From a virus (taxonomy: Duplodnaviria; Caudoviricetes): DNA of 63,998 nucleotides. Position numbers and translations under genes: made by a program. The notes beneath the pieces were generated by a model. That model was not told the origin of the DNA, made no database searches, and saw nothing but the letters and a program-made list of their open reading frames with translations. The stretch lies in the IMG/VR virus record IMGVR_UViG_3300033134_000083, positions 1 to 63,998 of that record; one strand, given 5' to 3'. Of the stretch, positions 1,556 to 17,131 are shown one piece after another. How positions within the stretch are numbered: the first letter of the stretch is position 1; every line of letters starts with the position of its first letter.

Positions 1556-2202
1556 GATCTGCTCCTCAGCAGTTCCTCCCGCGCGTTAGCCGCAGCTTCG
1601 CAAGCTGGGCATATCATGCCCTCGCAAGGCTCACCGCACGCACCGCATATCCCTGGCTGCAGGTGCGACGTGCCCAGAAAGTCAGCGTTGCTATGCCAGG
1701 CACCGTTATCCAACGTAATGCCAAGCTGCTCGTTGAGCACGGTAACGGGCTCTCTGGCTGGGTCGGTGCTCAGCACGATGGCTTTGTTTAAACCCATCCG
1801 CTGCTCCAGCTCAGCCCGTTCGGCAGGGTCCTTCAGATTCCACTTCGGCAGTATCTCCGTGGCGAACACCACTGCGTCGCTGCGTCCGTCATTCACGGGA
1901 AATAGGTAGCCGTTGTGCAGCATAACCGTCCTTGAGTCCAGCAAAACTGGGTGGTTAAACTCCAACCCTATAGGCATGCTGCCTGCGTGGCGGGAATGAA
2001 ACACAGCATGAAACAGCGGCCAGGTAAAGCGCGCTGACATGAACGAGTTGATGCAGTCAGCAGCGTCTATGCTGCGGCTAGTAATCAGCCGGTTTTCCTG
2101 CACCATAGCCCAGCCAAACCCATGCGGGTTCAGCCGGGCACCGTTCTCCAAGTGTTCCCGCTCAGGCATCACTCCTGGCGGAAGAAGCACCATGTGACAA
2201 AT
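1552..2202 (-). CDS. class II glutamine amidotransferase-like (Ntn hydrolase) protein
   Basis: N-terminal Cys, NPHGFG, FHSRHA, NHP and HNG motifs; an ATT start at 2202 puts Cys at position 2 (ORF track start is ATG 2211). Confidence 0.75.
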   Translation of the reverse strand: MCHMVLLPPGVMPEREHLENGARLNPHGFGWAMVQENRLITSRSIDAADCINSFMSARFTWPLFHAVFHSRHAGSMPIGLEFNHPVLLDSRTVMLHNGYLFPVNDGRSDAVVFATEILPKWNLKDPAERAELEQRMGLNKAIVLSTDPAREPVTVLNEQLGITLDNGAWHSNADFLGTSHLQPGICGACGEPCEGMICPACEAAANAREELLRSRS

Positions 2203-2348
2203 TGTAATCATTCCCTTCCTGGCGGTACAGGATAGGTTCTTGCGCTAGGGCCGTAAAGCTTCAGCGCTAGTGCGTTGCGTGCAGCCCGGCCGGTGCCATC
2301 GGTGACTTTCGAAGCGAGTAACTTCTTCCAGACCGTCAACTCATGTGT

Positions 2349-2639
2349 TCATTTCTTTTTTCTCCTCATCAGTACGATGTACTTGCCTTTGAGCTTCTTC
2401 GTCAAATGGTAACCATGGCACCCGTACGGGCACCGGTACACAGAGCGAACATCGTCAGTCAAATACGCTGCCGCGTCTTCGATGCTGGCATGCCAATGCT
2501 TACCACCACACGGACGTGCTTCCCGCTTACGGCGACGTTTACGTCCACGATGTGCAGCCCGGCGGTGAGCCAGACAGCAATACACCGCATCAGGGTTCTG
2601 CGGAAAAAACAACCGGCCACAATGCCCACATACCTTCAT
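2349..2639 (-). CDS. basic zinc-binding hypothetical protein
   Basis: CxxC, YCC and YRCPYGCHGYHLT motifs; Arg/Lys-rich. Confidence 0.55.
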   Translation of the reverse strand: MKVCGHCGRLFFPQNPDAVYCCLAHRRAAHRGRKRRRKREARPCGGKHWHASIEDAAAYLTDDVRSVYRCPYGCHGYHLTKKLKGKYIVLMRRKKK

Positions 2640-3788
2640 TCCCGTTCCTTTAGCTAAATAGTACCGTTACCGCAGCCACCACAACCAGCGTTTACGGAAA
2701 CGGCTACACCCACACAGGGCGCATTCCTCACCAACCCGGTAGTGGTAGTGAGCCATCCAGCTATGACCACACCGGCACATCATGACGTTGACCGAAGTTC
2801 CGCACCGTCCGCGAATAGCTCACTTACTGTGATATGGCGCAAAGCGTTTATCTCGCTTACTGTCACGTCGGGTATAACACGTCTGGCGTAAGCACGAGTA
2901 CGCTTTGTCAGCTTGTCCCACGGCAACGTTCCCTCGGTAGCTGAAGCAGTAAGAAGCATAGTAACCAAGAAGCGCTGACGCGCGATGCTTCCTTTTGCGT
3001 AGCTCATGGCTGGTCCTCCTCGTATGCCATGTTCAGCTGCTGGCGTACCAGCTCATCTTCCTTGGTCCACCCGTTCTGCCGCCACACGTACGGCTTGAAC
3101 GGCATCCCGTTCCTGAAACCGCGAACCACTGAATGTCCAGTGATTGGCAAGTGTTCGTCGCCCGTGTGGCGTGCCAAACCGTCACGAGCTTCCGGTTCGT
3201 AGATACGTACGTCAATCTGTGGTGGAAGCGTCAACGGCTTCCCGTCCACTTTCCGCCACCGGTAGTGGCGCCACTCTTCTCTCATTGTCGTTTCCTATTC
3301 CCTTGAGCTTCTGCTCCGCAGCCAGTGCGCGCTGCTTCCAGTATTCACGCTCTTCGCGTGCTTCGGCTAGTTTTGTAGTGAGTTCGTCGTACGTCATGGG
3401 CCGAAACGTCACTTTCGTTCCTCCAGTTCACTGAGCGAAAACCATTGCTCCAGCTCTGCTGGTGTCCTCACGTCAGCGGTGTGCCATCCGTACTCGGACA
3501 CTCGCAGCCAATCGCCGGACTCCAGCAGGTGGATAACCTCCACCTGCCAGCGTCCGTCCTTCGTCATGTAGCTCATCGGAGTTCCATGCGGCCGAATCCA
3601 TGGCCGGGAATGTTGCTGCACCGGGGCCAGTGGTAACACTGGCTAATACGGTCACCGTTGTGGCACTTCACGAACTGCCTATCCGGCTCACACTTGCTGC
3701 ACCCATCTTCTTTGCCGGGGTGCCAGAACCCGTTGCTAGCTATGTGGCCAGCAGCGGGAACACCAGGCATGACTAGCTGCGGCTTCAT

Positions 3789-9886: not shown

Positions 9887-10020
9887 ACTACATTGCATGG
9901 ACTTGGACGACTCCTCGCCTCGCTGTGAATCATGCGGTCACGTACTTGAAGACGACGACTGCGGATGTACCTGCTGCTTTTATGAAGACGACGAACCCAT
10001 AGAGGAAGTTTTCGCTTTCT

Positions 10021-10863
10021 TTGACACTGGCGAAAAGGGCACAACCGCTCCCCCGGAGGCACCTGAGCACAGCCGATGACGTTAAACGTCAACTCAGCGC
10101 CGACTACCCCGAAAACACCCTCGGCTGGATAAGCAACCAAGACTGGAGCGGACCCAAAGAAATACCCCTTAGTAATGTCAACTTCACCAACCGCAAAAAA
10201 TGGAACGCCTGGCACGAACCGCAAAGGGTAGCTAAGTTCGCCCGGCGGATAGCTAAGCGCTCTAAACAAGGTCGCCGCATCAAACCCGTCGTTCTCGTTG
10301 ACACTCCCGACAGCGACAAAAACCGTGACCTGATGATAGTGGACGGTCATCACCGCTCCCTCGCTTACCAAAAGCTGAACAAGCCGGTCTGGGGATATGT
10401 TGGCCGGACCAGTAAAGTTGAGGGACCTTGGGATGAACTCCATGCAAAACAGCGCGCAGTAGAAGGCCGAACAACTACAGATGACGACTATGGGTACGAG
10501 CCAAAGGGTAAAGTAGCTACCACGATTGCTGCTATGGCCCATGGGACGAGCGATAGCCAGCGTGAAGACGGCCATAAGCAGCAATCGTGGCAAGCTTGGG
10601 AACTTGACCGAGACCACGCCAACCAGCTAGCCGAGAACTTGCAGCAAGCCCTAGCTAGCGCCGTAGACACCCACTCCATAGCTCAAGAATGGGCCGACAT
10701 TGTAGCCCGCCAAGCACTAGGTCCTGGTGCTGCGGAAAGCTACGTGATGGCGAGAGCACCACACATCCAGCAAGCCATAGAGAACGTGCTAGGCCCAGCA
10801 TGGGAACAGGCATGGCAGCTAGGTGAACAAGCAGCTCAGCATCAGCTAGCGGGAGGTACCTGA
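10021..10863 (+). CDS. ParB/Srx-like domain head-associated protein
   Basis: KPVVLV...IVDGHHRSLA motif; helical C-terminus. Confidence 0.7.
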   Translation: MTLAKRAQPLPRRHLSTADDVKRQLSADYPENTLGWISNQDWSGPKEIPLSNVNFTNRKKWNAWHEPQRVAKFARRIAKRSKQGRRIKPVVLVDTPDSDKNRDLMIVDGHHRSLAYQKLNKPVWGYVGRTSKVEGPWDELHAKQRAVEGRTTTDDDYGYEPKGKVATTIAAMAHGTSDSQREDGHKQQSWQAWELDRDHANQLAENLQQALASAVDTHSIAQEWADIVARQALGPGAAESYVMARAPHIQQAIENVLGPAWEQAWQLGEQAAQHQLAGGT

Positions 10864-13800
10864 CTACTCCCACTACTCAGCAGCAGTCACCTCCGCAGCC
10901 CAGCGCTCTTGATGACCTCATCGCCCTGCTCCTGCTCACCAGCCCTGCTCTAGCAGCCTGGATAGCTACCCGCCGCAGCAGCGTCCGGAGCATGACCAAC
11001 ACCCGTCTAGCTCAGCTAGCAGCCGTTCTACGTGGCTTCCAGCAGTCAGCACTAGCCGGTGAACCAACCAATCCAGATGACCTGGAACACCAACTCAACG
11101 CTGTCCTAGCCGGTCCCGCTGTCCTCCCAGCCGACCAGCTACCCGAGCCAGGTTCCACGGGAAACACCTACCGTGGCCAGCCAGCTACCGGCCCAGCGCA
11201 AAGCTCCGCTGCTAACGTCGGGCAGACGGAAGTATCCGCTGCTATTGGTGCTGCCGCACATAACGTATACCGCAGCGACCCGGACGTGGACTACTCCGAA
11301 TGGCTAACCGCCGAGGACGAAAAAGTCTGCCCTATCTGTGTAGCTAACCAGGAAGCAGGCCCGGTTCCTATTGGCGCACCGTTTCCATCAGGGGTGCCGT
11401 TTCCACCGGCGCATGTGAACTGCCTACCGGGGGATGCCCTTGTATCGGCCCGTAGCCGTATCACGGGTGCGACGTCTCGGATATACGACGGTGAGCTGGT
11501 CTGCATCCGCACTCTGGCTGACAAGCTCCTTTCCGTCACCCCCAATCATCCGGTACTGACGGACCATGGCTGGATTGCGGCTGGTCTCCTGAAGAAAGGA
11601 GAAAACGTAGTTAGCGCTAGCGAGAGTGAGCGGAAACCGGGAATTGACTACGATAACGAGAACATGCCAGCCCGCATTCAGCAAATAGCGGAAGCGTTCT
11701 TGTGCTCGCGCAACGTGACTACCGCTGAAGTGCCATTGACCGCCGAAGATTTCCACGGCGACGGAGCTGGTAGTGAAGTCAGCATTATAGGGACCTATCG
11801 CAGTTTGCGTCCCGTACTCAAGACCGAGAGAGTTCAAGTAGGTGGCAAACAGCCGTTCCAATGCGGACACATGTACATCGCTCGGCGCGGCTTCACGGGT
11901 TTGCGCTCTAGCGATTCGCCGTTCCAGCGAGTCGGTATTTCCACGCCGAGCCACGTTAGCAGCAATAGTAAGAGCGCTACGCTCTTCGGCAGTAGTTTGC
12001 GCCATGCGGACGTACATGCTTTCGCTACGCCCTCTGGGCTTGACGTCGTTTTGCAGCAGGATGCGGCGGATAACGTTACGACTGACGCCAAAAGATTCAG
12101 CAAGCGCTTTTTCGCTCTCACCCTTGGTGTAGCGGTCGAGCAGGTTGCTGAGGTCTGGCGGGTCCCATTTAGCGGGCATGTGTATAACCTTGAGACAGTT
12201 GATGGGTGGTACATCGCCAATGGCATTGTAACTCACAACTGCCGGTGCACGACTACTCCCAGTGACTATCGTGCGGTGCCTGCGTTTGAAGCTCAGCAGG
12301 AAGCAATGCCCATGCGCCGTTTCGGCCTGCCGCATACTTCAGCGAGCCGGGAACGTGAACTGCAGAACGTGCCCAGTGAAACAACCGTGCTTCATGTAAC
12401 AGCAGAGCTAGAAAAAGGCGCCCCTGAGGGGAACATTTCCGGTGTCACCTTCGGTCCGCTTGCTAAATGCGTCTCCTGTGGCTGCGGTCTACCCCATGAT
12501 GACCACGGAGACGCCCGTAACATTACCCAGGAAGACGTTGAAGCCGCAGGAGCCGCAGTGGGTATAGCACCCGGCCAAGCCGCATCCAACATTGCTGACG
12601 CTTGGCGTGCGATGATGGTAGACGAAGCTGGCGCCAGGCAAGCGGACCAGGCATCCAAAGGCTGGCACGACGCGTGGCTGCATGAACTACGCGGCGGCCA
12701 CGGCGAATGGATTGGCGTTGGTGGTGACGTACCACACTTCGCTCAGCATGGCTCCACCCACGTCGAAGTAAAACCCCTCGTTAACGGCGACCACGAAGAC
12801 ATCAAACAGCGAGTTGGTAACCAGCTAAACCACCAAGCACAATGGGTGCCTAACCTTGCAGTCAGCTACCACGCTCACGTAACACCCGACAACGAACCCG
12901 ACTCTGGGCACCACCAATGGGGTTCCATCGTCATCCGCCAGCATGAACTATCAGACGACCAGCTACCCCACACCGTAGCCCACCAAATGGGTCACGCCGT
13001 TCACGACGCATTCCAAGGCGGTGCCGCCACCCAATACAACTCCAAACTGGGCGACATAAATCTGTGGCGCAAACTTTCTGCGGCTCTCGGCGTCAAAGAC
13101 CCGCCATTCACTCCTCGTAGCCACGGACGTGGTTACGTAACTCCTATGGTGTCCACCGACTGGGTGCGCCGCAACCGGGCCGCTATCCGGGACCAAGTCT
13201 CTAACCAAGCCACCGCTAACGTGGACGAGTTCATCGCCGAACTATGGGACCAGTTCACCACATCACCTAACCCTAGCCCCGTCGCTCAAATATTCGGCGA
13301 CTACGTGATGCAAAATTTGCCGTCACGCACCCACAACCCCCTTCTCGGGGAACTAGCCATGGCCGGTGGCAGCGTCGGCGGCCGCCGCAAATCCATGCAA
13401 GACTACTGGATAGCTAAAGACCTCCGCACTGCCTGGGAACACGAACTACGAGACCGTCACGGCAAATGGGCTAAAGCCGTTACCGAAGCACTGAAAACCG
13501 CACCCGACGCTCATGTAGCATCGGCTGATCGCAACGCTGAACATGTCGTGTTCACTATCGGCGACCCCAAGACCGCTGACCACGTTGTCACTATCGTGCC
13601 CGGCATGAACCCGCACTGGGAACATTTGCCCGCCGAAACAAAAGCAGCTTCCCGGATGAAAGCAGCCGTCGAAGCCAGAACCGGTAAAAAAGTCGCTGCC
13701 ATTCTCTGGGCTGGCTACAAACCACCGCAAAACTTTGCTTCGGCTAGCGACAAACTAACCGCGCAACACGCAGCTAAAGACCTTATGCGCTTTCAACGCC

Positions 13801-15371
13801 AGCTACGCAAAGACAACCCCAACGCCCACCGCACCGTTATCGGTCACTCCTACGGCAGCGTCGTCTCCGGTGAAGCAGCCCGCCACCTACCCAACTTCGC
13901 CGACGACCTCGTGCTCATTGGCTCACCCGGCACCTCGGCACACAAAGCAACCGAGTTCAACGTCCCCGACGGTCACGTATGGGTAGGAGCCCACTCCAAA
14001 GACCCCGTAGCTGGCGTATCCCGAGAACTACGCTTCCACTACGGCGGCAGCCCAGCCCGGCCAGCCTTTGGCGCAAAGGTATTCAACTCCGAAGTGCCAG
14101 GGGCTCAGTTCAGCACTCCGCTGCACAGCAGCGTTGGAGTGCTCGGACGAATGTGGCCCCAGACCAGCGAAGCTGACCCCGTAGCCATGTCAGCAGGAGC
14201 GCACTCCAGCTACTGGCGGCCCAACTCCAACGCCTGGAACGCAATGACTGCGATAGCATCAGGCGACCCTATTATCGAAACACCCGGCATTCCCGGCCAG
14301 CCACTCGTCGTAAAAGGCTGGCACGACGCCTGGCTACATGAGTTCCGTGACCCACGTGGCCACTGGGTGCACGAAGGACCACCACCAGCAGTACAGGACA
14401 TGGTCAAACACGGGTGGACGTTCCACGGCACCCCCGGTTCCCACCAGCACGCTAGTTTCCTATCCTCTGCTGCTGACCTAATGCGAAGCCAGCCACAGCT
14501 ACGTCCCCTAGCTGAGACGCTGCGCCGAGCATCAGCGGAGATGAACAAAAAACACCCCGACGTAGCCCACCAAGTACTCCTAGGTGCAGCTAAGCAAACA
14601 CACTTCGCAGCCCTGAAAACCGGTGACGTTAACTTGCGTCACGCAGCATTCGCGTTGCATTACCACGGCGACCTCCTAGACGACTTGCACCTCACCGGTC
14701 GCAGTGACTTGCCGGAAACTCGTGAAGCTGCGGATGCACGCCGCTCCCTGGAAGCCGACCTGAAGTCCGGCCAGCACGACGTTCAATACCCTGGCCATGG
14801 ACAAATGGGCGAAACGTCGTTCGTCCGGTTCAATAACGGTTCCCGGTGGGTGCGTAAAGGTGACGCAGCTATCGACCAAGACCGCGAAATTCTCTCCAGT
14901 CGGGTAGCGGATGCCCTCGGCGCTCGGGCACCGGAAGTTATCCCCGACTCATCATGGAACCCTACCGACAAACACCCCGTTGTCTGGGAGCCCATGCTGC
15001 CGCACCCTACCGCTATCGACTTGGAACGCGGCAAAGACTACGATCCCGACAAAGTGTTCTCCGGCCCTGAAGGTCAGCGAATTGGCGTTCTTGACAAAAT
15101 CATATCCAACCAAGACCGCAACGACGGAAACTGGCTCGTAGACAGTAACGGACTTCCTGTTCCTATCGACCACGGCCAAGCTTACTTTGACAACGACTAC
15201 GCCCCATCCAGCGAGTTTTCCACCAAACTAGACCCGACATCCATTTCGCCTGCGCAATGGGATGAGTGGGCAGGAAAACTCGGCGCTCTCAGCCCAGAGT
15301 TCTCCGCGCTCAACCGAGGAGACTGGTTTCAATCAATGATGCAGTCATTCCAAAGTCTGAGGCCATCATGA
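10860..15371 (+). CDS. MuF (phage head morphogenesis) polyprotein containing an intein and several effector domains
   Basis: WLTAEDEKVCPIC...PPAHVN|CRC MuF motif split by an intein; zincin-like, alpha/beta hydrolase (GHSYGS) and kinase-like (DRNDGN...IDHG) domains; frame is open from CTG 10860 (ORF track start is ATG 10992). Confidence 0.85.
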   Translation: MTTPTTQQQSPPQPSALDDLIALLLLTSPALAAWIATRRSSVRSMTNTRLAQLAAVLRGFQQSALAGEPTNPDDLEHQLNAVLAGPAVLPADQLPEPGSTGNTYRGQPATGPAQSSAANVGQTEVSAAIGAAAHNVYRSDPDVDYSEWLTAEDEKVCPICVANQEAGPVPIGAPFPSGVPFPPAHVNCLPGDALVSARSRITGATSRIYDGELVCIRTLADKLLSVTPNHPVLTDHGWIAAGLLKKGENVVSASESERKPGIDYDNENMPARIQQIAEAFLCSRNVTTAEVPLTAEDFHGDGAGSEVSIIGTYRSLRPVLKTERVQVGGKQPFQCGHMYIARRGFTGLRSSDSPFQRVGISTPSHVSSNSKSATLFGSSLRHADVHAFATPSGLDVVLQQDAADNVTTDAKRFSKRFFALTLGVAVEQVAEVWRVPFSGHVYNLETVDGWYIANGIVTHNCRCTTTPSDYRAVPAFEAQQEAMPMRRFGLPHTSASRERELQNVPSETTVLHVTAELEKGAPEGNISGVTFGPLAKCVSCGCGLPHDDHGDARNITQEDVEAAGAAVGIAPGQAASNIADAWRAMMVDEAGARQADQASKGWHDAWLHELRGGHGEWIGVGGDVPHFAQHGSTHVEVKPLVNGDHEDIKQRVGNQLNHQAQWVPNLAVSYHAHVTPDNEPDSGHHQWGSIVIRQHELSDDQLPHTVAHQMGHAVHDAFQGGAATQYNSKLGDINLWRKLSAALGVKDPPFTPRSHGRGYVTPMVSTDWVRRNRAAIRDQVSNQATANVDEFIAELWDQFTTSPNPSPVAQIFGDYVMQNLPSRTHNPLLGELAMAGGSVGGRRKSMQDYWIAKDLRTAWEHELRDRHGKWAKAVTEALKTAPDAHVASADRNAEHVVFTIGDPKTADHVVTIVPGMNPHWEHLPAETKAASRMKAAVEARTGKKVAAILWAGYKPPQNFASASDKLTAQHAAKDLMRFQRQLRKDNPNAHRTVIGHSYGSVVSGEAARHLPNFADDLVLIGSPGTSAHKATEFNVPDGHVWVGAHSKDPVAGVSRELRFHYGGSPARPAFGAKVFNSEVPGAQFSTPLHSSVGVLGRMWPQTSEADPVAMSAGAHSSYWRPNSNAWNAMTAIASGDPIIETPGIPGQPLVVKGWHDAWLHEFRDPRGHWVHEGPPPAVQDMVKHGWTFHGTPGSHQHASFLSSAADLMRSQPQLRPLAETLRRASAEMNKKHPDVAHQVLLGAAKQTHFAALKTGDVNLRHAAFALHYHGDLLDDLHLTGRSDLPETREAADARRSLEADLKSGQHDVQYPGHGQMGETSFVRFNNGSRWVRKGDAAIDQDREILSSRVADALGARAPEVIPDSSWNPTDKHPVVWEPMLPHPTAIDLERGKDYDPDKVFSGPEGQRIGVLDKIISNQDRNDGNWLVDSNGLPVPIDHGQAYFDNDYAPSSEFSTKLDPTSISPAQWDEWAGKLGALSPEFSALNRGDWFQSMMQSFQSLRPS
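11421..12239 (+). mobile_element. intein 1 (273 aa) in MuF
   Basis: CLPGD block A, VTPNHP block B, SGHVYNLET block F, THN|C block G; removal restores PAHVNCRC. Confidence 0.92.
11424..12179 (-). CDS. antisense HTH + Vsr/DUF559-like PD-(D/E)xK endonuclease inside intein 1 (251 aa)
   Basis: HTH (SEKALAESFGVSRNVIRRIL); SALERLF...Q.AIGPYNADF...VAVEIFGGQWH...LLNAGWHVL. Confidence 0.85.
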   Translation of the reverse strand: MPAKWDPPDLSNLLDRYTKGESEKALAESFGVSRNVIRRILLQNDVKPRGRSESMYVRMAQTTAEERSALTIAANVARRGNTDSLERRIARAQTREAAPSDVHVSALERLFATYLNSLGLEYGTQTAIGPYNADFTTSSVAVEIFGGQWHFSGSHVARAQERFRYLLNAGWHVLVIVVNSRFPLTLASANYVFSFLQETSRNPAMVRQYRMIGGDGKELVSQSADADQLTVVYPRRRTRDTATGRYKGIPR

Positions 15372-17131
15372 TTACGGTTCACACTCAAGCAGGTAAACGC
15401 GGCACCATCCACATCGAAAACAACCGCCTCAAAGGGTCCACCCCTGCACTGCAACGCGTCGCTGACCAAGTACAAAGCCGCATCGGCAGTGCTCAGGACT
15501 CGTACCACTATCTGCTGCGCAGCTCCAATGGTTATGTCCAATACGCGGAAGCAGGCCACCAATCACCCGATTCAGCTAAGGTACAGCTACCCGACTCACA
15601 GGGACGCCCATCGGAGCTATGGATTGCTAAAGAAACTGTAGCCATGCTGGAAGACGTGGAAAAAAGAAAGTCTCCGCGAGGTAACGCTCAAACTTTGCGT
15701 GACTACTGGACCGGCCATGGTCACGGGGGACCCACCCACCACGCATTCGAGCGAGCCATTGCGTGGGGTACGCCCGGTGACTTCGACCGCTGTGTAGCCA
15801 TGGTCACTGAACACGCCAAAATGAGCCCGGAGCACGCCAAGGGCTACTGCGTTACCGAAGACGCTCGCGTGCTTTCGGCTGGAAGCTCACTCCGATTGCT
15901 GGGCAGCTTTGAACGGTATTACATCGGGGATGTCATCGCTATTACTACTTCCACCGGTAACCAGCTCACCGTTACCCCGAATCACCCGATAGCAACACGG
16001 AGCGGCTGGGTTCCGGCTGCGGAACTCCAGCCAGGAGACCACGTCCTGTGCAGCCTCAGCGCTGAACGCATGATACGCCAAGACGAAGATGACATCGTAC
16101 CCCGCATTAAGCAGGTAGCGCAGTCGCTGTCCTTGGCGTTCACCACGGTGACGCGGGCCGTAGATTTCCACGGCGATAGTACCGATGGCGAGGTCCACGT
16201 TGTACGGGCCAACAGCCTTTTGGTGGACGATGCCCTCAACGCCATGCTCGCTGAGCATGCGGGCGAACTGCTCCTCGTCGGAAGCGACCATGGGATTCGC
16301 CTGGCGCGTGCGGGCAGCCTTGAACCGGTTCTTAGCTCCAGTTCCGCCGGGAGTCCCGTAAACGCGGGGCAGGCTAGGGTCAGCTGGTATCCGATGGTCA
16401 GCGGGGATGTGGTTGCGTCGCAGAACGTTGTAGACGCTGCTGATCGAGCAGCCCAAAGCCGAAGCGACTACTTCGGCTTTATCTCCGGAAACGAAGCAGC
16501 TGATGATAGTCGCTTCATCCAGGTCGGCCTGGAACCCGTTATTCGCGTGCCTAATGGCAACGCAGTTTGCTCTCAACACGTCGCTGATGGTGTTCCGGCT
16601 AGCGCCAAGCCGTTGAGCAACGTCGCTAACCTGAAGTCCGGTTTTGTAGAGAGCAACTACCTCGGCGTCCGTGTAAGTCCGGTGACGAACGAAGCCAGCA
16701 GCACGGCGCGGACCACGCTGGACTTCAACGCCTCTCTCGCTGAGAAGCTTCTTTACGGTTCGATGGCTGACTCCGAGACTCGCCGCGATTTTCGTCAGTG
16801 GCTCTCCGTCGATGTAGCGTTGCGCGATGTTGTCTCCGTCGAGCGAAGGTCGTTCAGCGGTCATGTCTACGATCTTAGTACAGATACCGGAGTCTTTACA
16901 GCAGAGACTTTGGTATCTGGCCCGTGCAATCTTCGCCACCATGACGCGCTAGGCATCTGGCCCGCTACCCACGCTAAGGACATTAGGGAAGCAGAAGGCA
17001 AGGAGAAGGTTTCTGCAGCCAGTTTGGCGAAAGTCGGACCGCACGGCTGGGCACATGACTGGAAAGACGTAGACCCTGCGTTACTGGGTTTGGTCAGAAA
17101 AAGAGCAAGCCGACCAAGCGGCCCGGTATGA
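15368..17131 (+). CDS. head-associated protein containing intein 2
   Basis: ATGA overlap with the MuF stop; host reads LRDYWT...AWGTPGDFDRCV...AKGY|CNLRHHDALGIWP once the intein is removed. Confidence 0.75.
   Translation: MITVHTQAGKRGTIHIENNRLKGSTPALQRVADQVQSRIGSAQDSYHYLLRSSNGYVQYAEAGHQSPDSAKVQLPDSQGRPSELWIAKETVAMLEDVEKRKSPRGNAQTLRDYWTGHGHGGPTHHAFERAIAWGTPGDFDRCVAMVTEHAKMSPEHAKGYCVTEDARVLSAGSSLRLLGSFERYYIGDVIAITTSTGNQLTVTPNHPIATRSGWVPAAELQPGDHVLCSLSAERMIRQDEDDIVPRIKQVAQSLSLAFTTVTRAVDFHGDSTDGEVHVVRANSLLVDDALNAMLAEHAGELLLVGSDHGIRLARAGSLEPVLSSSSAGSPVNAGQARVSWYPMVSGDVVASQNVVDAADRAAQSRSDYFGFISGNEAADDSRFIQVGLEPVIRVPNGNAVCSQHVADGVPASAKPLSNVANLKSGFVESNYLGVRVSPVTNEASSTARTTLDFNASLAEKLLYGSMADSETRRDFRQWLSVDVALRDVVSVERRSFSGHVYDLSTDTGVFTAETLVSGPCNLRHHDALGIWPATHAKDIREAEGKEKVSAASLAKVGPHGWAHDWKDVDPALLGLVRKRASRPSGPV
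15848..16924 (+). mobile_element. intein 2 (359 aa), paralogue of intein 1, with a non-canonical C-terminus (VSGP|C)
   Basis: CVTED block A, VTPNHP block B, FSGHVYDLST block F; terminal Asn absent. Confidence 0.85.
15887..16864 (-). CDS. antisense 3xHTH + Vsr/DUF559-like endonuclease inside intein 2 (325 aa)
   Basis: Three HTH repeats (IAASLGVSHRTV, VAQRLGASRNTI, VASALGCSISSV); QKAVGPYNVDLAIGTIAVEIYG...LRYLLNAGYDVI. Confidence 0.85.
   Translation of the reverse strand: MTAERPSLDGDNIAQRYIDGEPLTKIAASLGVSHRTVKKLLSERGVEVQRGPRRAAGFVRHRTYTDAEVVALYKTGLQVSDVAQRLGASRNTISDVLRANCVAIRHANNGFQADLDEATIISCFVSGDKAEVVASALGCSISSVYNVLRRNHIPADHRIPADPSLPRVYGTPGGTGAKNRFKAARTRQANPMVASDEEQFARMLSEHGVEGIVHQKAVGPYNVDLAIGTIAVEIYGPRHRGERQGQRLRYLLNAGYDVIFVLAYHAFSAEAAQDVVSWLEFRSRNPAAPCCYRVIRGNGELVTGGSSNSDDIPDVIPFKAAQQSE

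Follow-up and report, generated by a model that had tools for sequence, protein, structure and literature searches.

The closest described counterparts of the element analysed here are full inteins in actinophage minor capsid proteins that carry VSR-like nucleases in antisense (Gosselin, Arsenault and Gogarten, bioRxiv 10.1101/2025.01.02.630785). That preprint traces antisense LAGLIDADG nucleases in inteins to Gorbalenya 1998; antisense or out-of-frame LAGLIDADG nucleases are described for cyanobacterial dnaX inteins (Gorbalenya 1998 and Gogarten 2002, as cited by others), and frame-specific selection has been reported for an out-of-frame nuclease in a cyanobacterial dnaX intein (Phillips et al, bioRxiv 10.64898/2026.09.14.751524). 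Two further systems bear on the comparison, namely fractured genes, in which split inteins have a free-standing Vsr-like or GIY-YIG nuclease between their halves (Dassa et al, 2009, PMC2677866), and I-Bth0305I, a Vsr-like homing endonuclease of the EDxHD family (Taylor et al, 2011, PMC3239194; structure 3r3p). Our subject is a 273-residue intein (intein 1) that interrupts a MuF-type head gene in the complete IMG/VR virus record IMGVR_UViG_3300033134_000083, recovered from a wetland metagenome; "the window" below means this whole stretch of 63,998 bp. On the opposite strand, within the intein, lies a 251-codon gene for a predicted helix-turn-helix (HTH) plus Vsr-like nuclease, and we consider it likely that the two make up one composite selfish element, a class-1 intein with an antiparallel homing nuclease gene on the other strand.

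The window's element resembles the inteins of the 2025 preprint in being contiguous and having an antisense nuclease open reading frame (ORF) in the usual endonuclease position, in the VSR-like predicted fold (linked there to 3R3P by HHpred) with a helical N-terminal extension, and in occupying a minor capsid (MuF) host with a sense-strand centre that lacks recognisable structure. Unlike that set, which comes from PhagesDB phages, the window represents an uncultivated wetland virus. An embedded start codon or Shine-Dalgarno (SD) sequence, selection that switches strand and spread outside actinophages were not found in the preprint's main text, nor was a free-standing nuclease beside an empty MuF site. 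The sequence-only reading of this DNA had implied that the architecture was new; since it is already in the preprint, the window's element adds to a known kind, its novelty is modest, and its value is mainly that of confirmation and extension. With the fractured genes the element shares a Vsr-like nuclease that is translated separately, from a gene at the canonical insertion point of endonucleases, and those genes also show small coding overlaps with intein parts; unlike the split inteins, the window's intein is contiguous and its nuclease gene is fully overlapped on the other strand. As in the dnaX inteins, the nuclease frame differs from the intein frame and is under the stronger selection, whereas the dnaX nuclease is of the LAGLIDADG type and has cellular hosts, and the case of Phillips et al lies in the +2 frame of the same strand. 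I-Bth0305I likewise combines an N-terminal HTH/NUMOD DNA-binding region with a C-terminal Vsr-like nuclease, but it sits in a group I intron on the sense strand. Our literature search, which left most subscription journals outside its range, returned no paper on an antisense nuclease in inteins of Jersey-like or other proteobacterial phages, and a paper on the Jerseyvirus intein treats it as an intein only (PMC8425127).

The host ORF (coordinates of all features in Table 1) matches two PHROG head-protein families (phrog_15127, 6e-39; phrog_2662, 3.9e-9) and, in Pfam, Abhydrolase_8 (1.2e-35) and Phage_Mu_F (0.077), the last of these weakly because the intein splits the domain. Read across the intein, the protein runs ...PAHVN|CLPGD...TPNHP...SGHVYNLE...IVTHN|CRC..., with bars at the splice junctions: Cys1 is at 11421-11423, block B is TPNH (residues 40-43), block F is GHVYNLE, and the intein ends in HN before Cys +1 (...VTHN|CRC, 12234-12242). 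Among 18 aligned inteins (alignment A2), Cys1 and H43 are invariant and T40 is at least 90% conserved, and most relatives have the same type of junction, H-x-N|C-R/E/K-C. The AlphaFold model of the sense frame, built on this alignment, has beta-rich N-terminal (1-67) and C-terminal (237-273) parts with pLDDT values (predicted local distance difference test) above 80; block values over residues 1-70 are 89, 81, 92, 93, 92, 94 and 77. Further strands are predicted at moderate confidence over residues 81-125 (to 11795; pLDDT 56-76 over 81-120). In Pfam the sense frame matches Intein_splicing alone, below threshold (1.1e-4, 22.5 bits, cut-off 35.8). The intein and its three signatures had been placed exactly by the sequence-only reading, every coordinate of which proved correct, and its statement that the centre holds no sense-frame nuclease also agrees with our searches, which gave no Pfam or PHROG domain in the linker (residues 126-221), a stretch without predicted structure. 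This linker is the nuclease gene's shadow. The conserved sense motif D-F-H-G-D...E-V-E-I-V raised the possibility of a hidden nuclease in the sense frame, which we rejected: the motif mirrors Y-N-x-D-F...V-A-V-E-V of the nuclease, E143 of the nuclease does not vary whereas its sense counterpart is either Phe or Leu, and the sense model there is of moderate to low confidence.

The codon-aligned reverse frame is open from 12335. The block-F His codon, CAT, supplies its ATG in reverse complement (12179-12177), and intein codon 2, CTA, likewise supplies its TAG (11426-11424); these positions and the exact fit of the 251-residue gene within the intein, both claimed earlier, were verified on the sequence. 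Any CTA, TTA or TCA in the sense frame is a stop on the other strand. In the extein of the same ORF, 28 of the 77 Leu codons are CTA and 15 of the 82 Ser codons are TCA, while intein residues 3-253, with 19 Leu and 25 Ser, use CTA, TTA and TCA not once. The probability of an open reverse frame, conditional on the intein protein and on extein codon usage, is 1.2e-6. The same calculation for 15 relatives gave 7.7e-10 to 1.4e-3 in 11, mostly of low or medium GC content (the exception being L044, 0.0069). By comparison, the reverse frame has 27 stops per 647 codons in the window's flanking host ORF and 351 per 14,678 across all loci. A closer look at 15 inteins (GC 0.42-0.65) showed one to three stops in the codon-aligned reverse frame, located only at its ends, against 2-31 in the remaining two. 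From this, and from what follows, we conclude that the reverse ORF is a real gene, open by more than chance. As a separate matter, the extein (10992-11420 and 12240-15368, +) has an unusual Leu codon preference, in which CTA is the commonest codon (28/77) and TTA is never used.

The reverse frame encodes a protein with a confidently predicted fold. Its Pfam matches are HTH_58 (4.4e-4), MTES_1575 (1.5e-3; 19.0 bits against a gathering cut-off of 38.2) and DUF559 (0.061; 13.6 against 20.6), and the free-standing homologue described below reaches 27.3 bits against MTES_1575; given these sub-threshold scores, the nuclease is a relative of MTES_1575 and DUF559 rather than a member. A profile of 21 sequences (alignment A1: the window protein, 19 IMG/VR relatives and the window's own paralogue) matched the solved structures 3hrl (endonuclease-like, 2e-7), 2lvs (tandem-HTH, 2.3e-4), 3r3p (I-Bth0305I, 7e-3) and 1cw0 (Vsr, 0.046). 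The AlphaFold model on the same alignment has a pLDDT of 88.6 and a predicted template modelling score (pTM) of 0.67, with 164 of 251 residues at 90 or above, and runs from three short HTH helices through a helical linker and an alpha/beta core to a C-terminal hairpin. Its best Foldseek match is I-Bth0305I (3r3p_B, E 5.6e-4, template modelling score on the target 0.64-0.65), followed by Vsr (1cw0_A, 1.2e-3; 1vsr, 2.6e-3). None of E108, D134 and E143 varies among the 21 sequences and H150 is conserved in at least 90% of them; the four align with E, D196 (Ala in the crystal), the acidic E and H213 (Ala in the crystal) of I-Bth0305I (residue numbers D196 and H213 from PMC3239194); the resemblance is distant, with 19% identity in the structural alignment and the last Asp of the motif missing here. 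In the HTH module the Pfam matches (HTH_58 over residues 12-51, HTH_7 and HTH_23) are all sub-threshold. Longer relatives carry one or two extra copies of this module (two to three in total), and length differences among relatives amount to whole HTH modules in the reverse frame. In the C-terminal tail a beta-hairpin is predicted confidently over residues 208-223, and confidence is low for roughly the last 20 residues (pLDDT 96, 96 and 92 over residues 201-230, then 65, 60 and 47). Of the earlier description of this protein as an HTH plus Vsr/DUF559-type nuclease, the HTH and the Vsr-like fold stand by AlphaFold, Foldseek and profile search, and the DUF559 assignment falls short of the Pfam cut-off. 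Structure prediction and profile searches thus separate the two frames: the nuclease frame folds, and the sense centre is unstructured.

Reverse complementation of a codon leaves its position 2 in place and exchanges positions 1 and 3; which frame is constrained can therefore be read from the position that is least conserved. Among 34 distinct sequences, and with the same result whether the alignment was guided by one frame or the other, the amino acid identity over nuclease residues 1-150 was 0.28-0.39 in the nuclease frame against 0.17-0.28 in the sense frame, and nuclease position 3 was least conserved. At the intein's ends the order was reversed: 0.32-0.34 in the nuclease frame against 0.51-0.53 in the sense frame opposite blocks F/G, and 0.22-0.23 against about 0.35 opposite blocks A/B, with sense position 3 least conserved in both. 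Over nuclease residues 151-200 identity was 0.24 and 0.21-0.22, respectively, with no clear difference by position. In eight closer pairs we also counted codon differences that are silent in one frame only, giving first those silent in the nuclease frame and then those silent in the sense frame; the pairs have sequences in common and their members are related by descent, so that the counts are not independent events. The ratios were 266:66 in the centre, 70:34 over nuclease residues 151-200, 37:72 in blocks A/B and 2:41 in blocks F/G; for the window and its closest relative (L018), they were 31:10, 14:8, 6:13 and 0:7. In its centre the element is therefore under selection in the nuclease frame, and at its ends in the intein frame, a switch of strand in line with the dual coding first proposed from the two open frames. 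The ORF runs on past the linker's edge: nuclease residues ~184-233 face intein residues 21-70, and block pLDDT there is 92-97 for the nuclease and 77-94 for the intein. The models suggest that about 45 codons (nuclease ~187-230, intein ~24-67) are in true double use, and the free-standing homologue, which aligns through residue 236, retains the C-terminal part that is overlapped in the window.

The start of the nuclease gene appears to be written into block F. We surveyed 75 aligned regions (L015, L030, L049, L078 and L084 dropped; a few are duplicates at the intein level) and found the codon opposite the block-F His to be ATG in 42, GTG in 11 and TTG in 1, with GGAGG, GAGG, GGAG or AAGG 5-20 nt upstream in 58. 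When 71 distinct contexts were compared with flanking host ORFs, the block-F His codon was CAT in 41 of 48 cases against a background of 42%, and the Leu four codons on was CTC or CTT in 56 of 63 against 39%. Because the choice of His and Leu codons is skewed in this way, we conclude that intein block F doubles as the ribosome-binding site and start of the nuclease. The start assignment is further supported by the free-standing homologue, which begins with the same residues as the window's nuclease.

A megablast of window positions 10000-14000 against GenBank phages gave no match, hence no close cultured relative. At the protein level the family is widespread. With the reverse-frame protein, tblastn matched 119 GenBank phage records, 102 of them at 80% coverage or more, from phages of Gordonia, Mycobacterium, Rhodococcus, Salmonella, Escherichia, Pantoea, Pseudomonas, Klebsiella, Edwardsiella, Vibrio, Aggregatibacter and an Idiomarinaceae bacterium. 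Fifteen of these phage loci were examined, 14 annotated and one an unannotated, unverified Salmonella record (L015); in all 14 annotated loci the match lies opposite an annotated MuF or head gene. IMG/VR contributed 29 more loci, the closest at 54% identity, and a scan of species-representative bacterial genomes with one peptide pattern from a six-sequence alignment, which samples the family and is no census, contributed 40, from Alpha- and Gammaproteobacteria, Actinomycetota, Chloroflexota, Gemmatimonadota, Bacteroidota, Armatimonadota, Cyanobacteria, Firmicutes, candidate phyla and others. In ten host ORFs picked by hand from these 40 for taxonomic spread, Intein_splicing was matched in all ten (five over the cut-off), Phage_Mu_F in seven and Phage_min_cap2 in one. 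Both frames are open in 43 of the 44 phage and IMG/VR loci, the exception being L015, with stops in both frames, and in 39 of the 40 bacterial-genome loci, where the exception is the free-standing copy (L049); loci with both frames open span GC 0.40-0.69. Stops in the antisense frame of a homologous intein were thus met at 1 of 84 loci, in an unverified record. The proposed dual coding is accordingly supported by fold prediction, profile matches, selection that switches strand and the conservation of both frames in about 80 relatives.

Annotation has largely passed over the reverse strand: 12 of the 14 annotated GenBank loci show no annotation there beneath the match. Salmonella phage vB_StyS-sam (L001) has a hypothetical protein, gene 43 (2230-2631, +), over part of the ORF at 2001-2750; in Klebsiella phage RCIP0061 (L010) the 3' end of RCIP0061_00006 (1305-1502, +) reaches a few bases into the opposite-strand open frame; and Escherichia phage Snoke has an annotated 273-residue intein with its nuclease unannotated. 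Some relatives depart from the common form. Rhodococcus phage REQ3 (L011) has a 225-residue intein that starts with Ala, has Trp in block F and is without the antisense HTH module or start, and may be a decaying variant or one of a different class. The host ORF of a Scytonema genome bin (L074; 127-2916, -) has a PT-HINT/Hint_2 match at residues 65-195 and a nuclease-bearing intein at 230-554, which may be two inteins side by side, one of them a mini-intein. In Escherichia phage fEg-Eco06 (L013) a homologous unit lies at ...RTSTT|C, upstream of an uninterrupted PAHPN-CRS in the same MuF, and in Mycobacterium phage Sejanus (L008) one lies at ...QKVWV|C in an ORF annotated as capsid maturation protease; these other insertion sites suggest site switching.

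The free-standing copy, from a Thermoleophilia genome bin, is an intact 231-residue homologue of the window's nuclease (43% identity, E 2e-63), opposite which the other frame has three stops and no intein blocks. It is convergent with, and lies just downstream of, a MuF gene whose uninterrupted junction, SHPQ|CRC, is an intein-less allele, and a scaffold gene follows. Being intact outside any intein, this copy marks the nuclease as a gene in its own right, and the arrangement suggests how the nested form arose. Evidence on mobility comes from Jersey-like phages, in which a 2016-bp query over the homologous intein matched 351 records, of which 58 cover at least 80% of it and carry the intein. 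Among the 60 rows listed, 39 are two-piece matches of 1135-1200 bp with a precise absence of 816 bp between flanks that are 86-95% identical. This presence and absence would be the pattern expected of a homing element, in relatives rather than in the window's own phage, and on it, together with family resemblance, rests our inference that the nuclease is the intein's homing enzyme.

In the mechanism that we propose, the intein in the conserved H-x-N|C-R-C of the MuF gene would be translated within the host protein and remove itself by protein splicing, and the putative homing nuclease would be made from a separate opposite-strand gene, antiparallel to the intein codon for codon, instead of from an in-frame domain. 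That product would join an N-terminal HTH module for DNA binding to a C-terminal Vsr-like (EDxHD-type) nuclease, and the reverse complements of block-F codons would give its gene a start and ribosome-binding site of its own (His CAT giving ATG, Asn-Leu AAC-CTT giving AAGG). During mixed infections the nuclease would cut intein-less MuF alleles at or near the insertion site, and repair would copy the whole element into the cut allele. The sense read-through of the nuclease gene would then be a mere tolerated, disordered linker between the two halves of the splicing domain. The reverse orientation might, as the sequence-only reading proposed, let the nuclease be expressed earlier than the late host gene or independently of it. 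As to origin, a free-standing, reverse-oriented nuclease gene beside MuF was likely nested later in a mini-intein. The complete picture is one on which we are evenly divided when all its parts are taken jointly: a mobile element of two strands, old and very widespread in the MuF genes of tailed phages, that is no peculiarity of actinophages and occurs in phages and prophages from more than 12 bacterial phyla; an overlap functional on both strands, with start and ribosome-binding site hard-wired in block F and about 45 codons folded in both proteins; and an ancestor in the form of a free-standing nuclease gene, reverse-oriented next to MuF, such as the Thermoleophilia bin still has.

Several points weigh against the composite element. 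All Pfam matches of the window's antisense protein lie below the curated cut-offs, conservation fails at the last Asp of EDxHD (where Q160, next to E161, aligns in the window), the silent-change pairs share ancestry as described, and AlphaFold confidence in the double-coded stretch could reflect conservation imposed from the other strand. Scanned with a consensus that may not be the host's, 10800-13000 showed no sigma-70-like promoter on either strand; the single terminator-like site lies upstream of the nuclease ATG, at 12435-12419 on the minus strand. The sequencing runs listed for 10900-12700 were three wetland DNA runs and none of RNA. Nor did the megablast against GenBank phages turn up a close relative of this phage or an allele of it that lacks the intein. 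Lastly, the open frame by itself is not significant in four GC-rich relatives (L018, L002, L003 and L008; P 0.03-0.15). GC-rich DNA often has open codon-aligned reverse frames, and similarity in one frame yields similarity in the antiparallel frame, so one could hold that the reverse ORF is no gene and that composition and "shadow" conservation of the intein frame keep it open. We give this almost no credence, considering the probability of 1.2e-6 in the window and the relatives of low GC (0.40-0.48), in which the frame is open too, with as many as 31 stops in other reverse frames. Of the 84 loci, a single unverified record has stops in the frame, the wobble position and the silent changes follow the reverse frame in the centre, the fold is confident and four active-site positions are conserved, length varies by whole HTH modules in the reverse frame, and the ORF is intact in the Thermoleophilia bin, where the sense frame is broken.

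A real nuclease need not be the intein's homing enzyme. It could be a selfish nuclease of the free-standing type that uses the intein as a safe harbour and cuts elsewhere ("intronless homing", or marker exclusion against competing phages), or else a DNA-binding regulator. The homologue outside any intein would fit this, as would the missing last Asp, and the homologous units at other sites in fEg-Eco06 and Sejanus mean that nuclease and site are not rigidly tied. We nevertheless find it improbable, as the nuclease ORF is exactly nested in an intein at 82 of the 84 loci, most of them at the same MuF junction, the free-standing copy adjoins the same target gene with its site empty, and in Jersey-like phages intein and nuclease are gained or lost as one 816-bp unit. 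The element might also be a fixed relic in this phage, with an intein that splices and a nuclease that is inactive or unexpressed and not yet decayed; the lack of an intein-less close relative in our searches, the weaker AAGG as the window's SD-like motif, and relatives that look decayed (REQ3 without N-terminal module and start, L015 with stops in both frames) would agree with it. Set against this are a full-length ORF in the window with ATG, E108, D134, E143 and H150 intact, the complete avoidance of CTA, TTA and TCA in spite of CTA being the extein's commonest Leu codon, and the 31:10 excess of nuclease-frame silent changes in the centre between the window and L018, so that we rate the relic as a distinctly slim prospect. 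The composite element of intein and antiparallel homing nuclease gene, which we judged likely at the outset, is among the clearest natural cases of long antiparallel dual coding, with 251 codons that are each the reverse complement of an intein codon, and the switch of the selected frame between strands is part of that significance. If the putative homing role is right, it shows a route by which an intein can gain a homing enzyme without in-frame fusion, and it has a bearing on the "splicing first, nuclease later" model for how inteins originated. In practical terms, genome annotation misses antisense nuclease genes, and compact HTH plus Vsr-like enzymes are candidate new site-specific nucleases.

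Table 1. Coordinates of the intein, the reverse-strand nuclease gene and their parts (window positions, except in the last row)
Feature	Position	Strand	Remarks
Host ORF	10992-15371	+	1459 aa; MuF-type head-morphogenesis domain N-terminal, split by intein; long C-terminal extension
Intein 1	11421-12239	+	819 nt, 273 aa, class-1 signature; interrupts MuF motif PAHVN|CRC
N-terminal splicing (HINT) part	11421-11621	+	Residues 1-67, confidently folded in sense frame
Sense-frame "linker"	11796-12083	+	Residues ~126-221; open frame, no predicted structure, pLDDT 30-37
C-terminal splicing part	12129-12239	+	Residues 237-273, blocks F and G, pLDDT 86-95
Reverse-strand nuclease gene	11424-12179	-	251 codons plus TAG stop; HTH plus Vsr/EDxHD-like nuclease, putative homing endonuclease
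Shine-Dalgarno-like AAGG	12188-12191	-	8 nt upstream of ATG; reverse complement of block-F Asn-Leu (AAC CTT)
HTH DNA-binding module	12051-12152	-	Nuclease residues ~10-43; helices 10-18, 23-30 and 34-43, pLDDT ~94
Vsr-like catalytic core	11577-11864	-	Nuclease residues ~106-201
Active-site codons	E108 11856-11858; D134 11778-11780; E143 11751-11753; H150 11730-11732	-	Checked on sequence
C-terminal nuclease tail	11427-11576	-	Residues 202-251, opposite intein blocks A and B
Free-standing homologue and MuF (L049, own coordinates)	1480-2193; 2183-3280	+; -	3' ends overlap by a few bases

The window holds a second, paralogous intein in the next gene (15266-17131, +; 621-residue product), about 4 kb downstream, for whose extein no Pfam family was found. 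Intein 2 is 35% identical to intein 1 over the N-terminal domain and has the same reverse-strand architecture, with an antisense ORF at 15887-16942 (-) that comprises three HTH modules and a Vsr-like core (HTH_23 60.3 bits, other HTH families also above the cut-off). Its C-terminal junction looks non-canonical, ...TAETLVSGP|CNL, without the terminal Asn that intein 1 has (THN).

The MuF host protein continues for about 1040 residues after intein 1 (12240-15371, +), a stretch that carries the Abhydrolase_8 match (1.2e-35) and, near the C-terminus, a weak PI3/PI4-kinase-like match under the cut-off (2.7e-5). Judging by these matches, it is a MuF protein fused to putative enzyme-like cargo domains.

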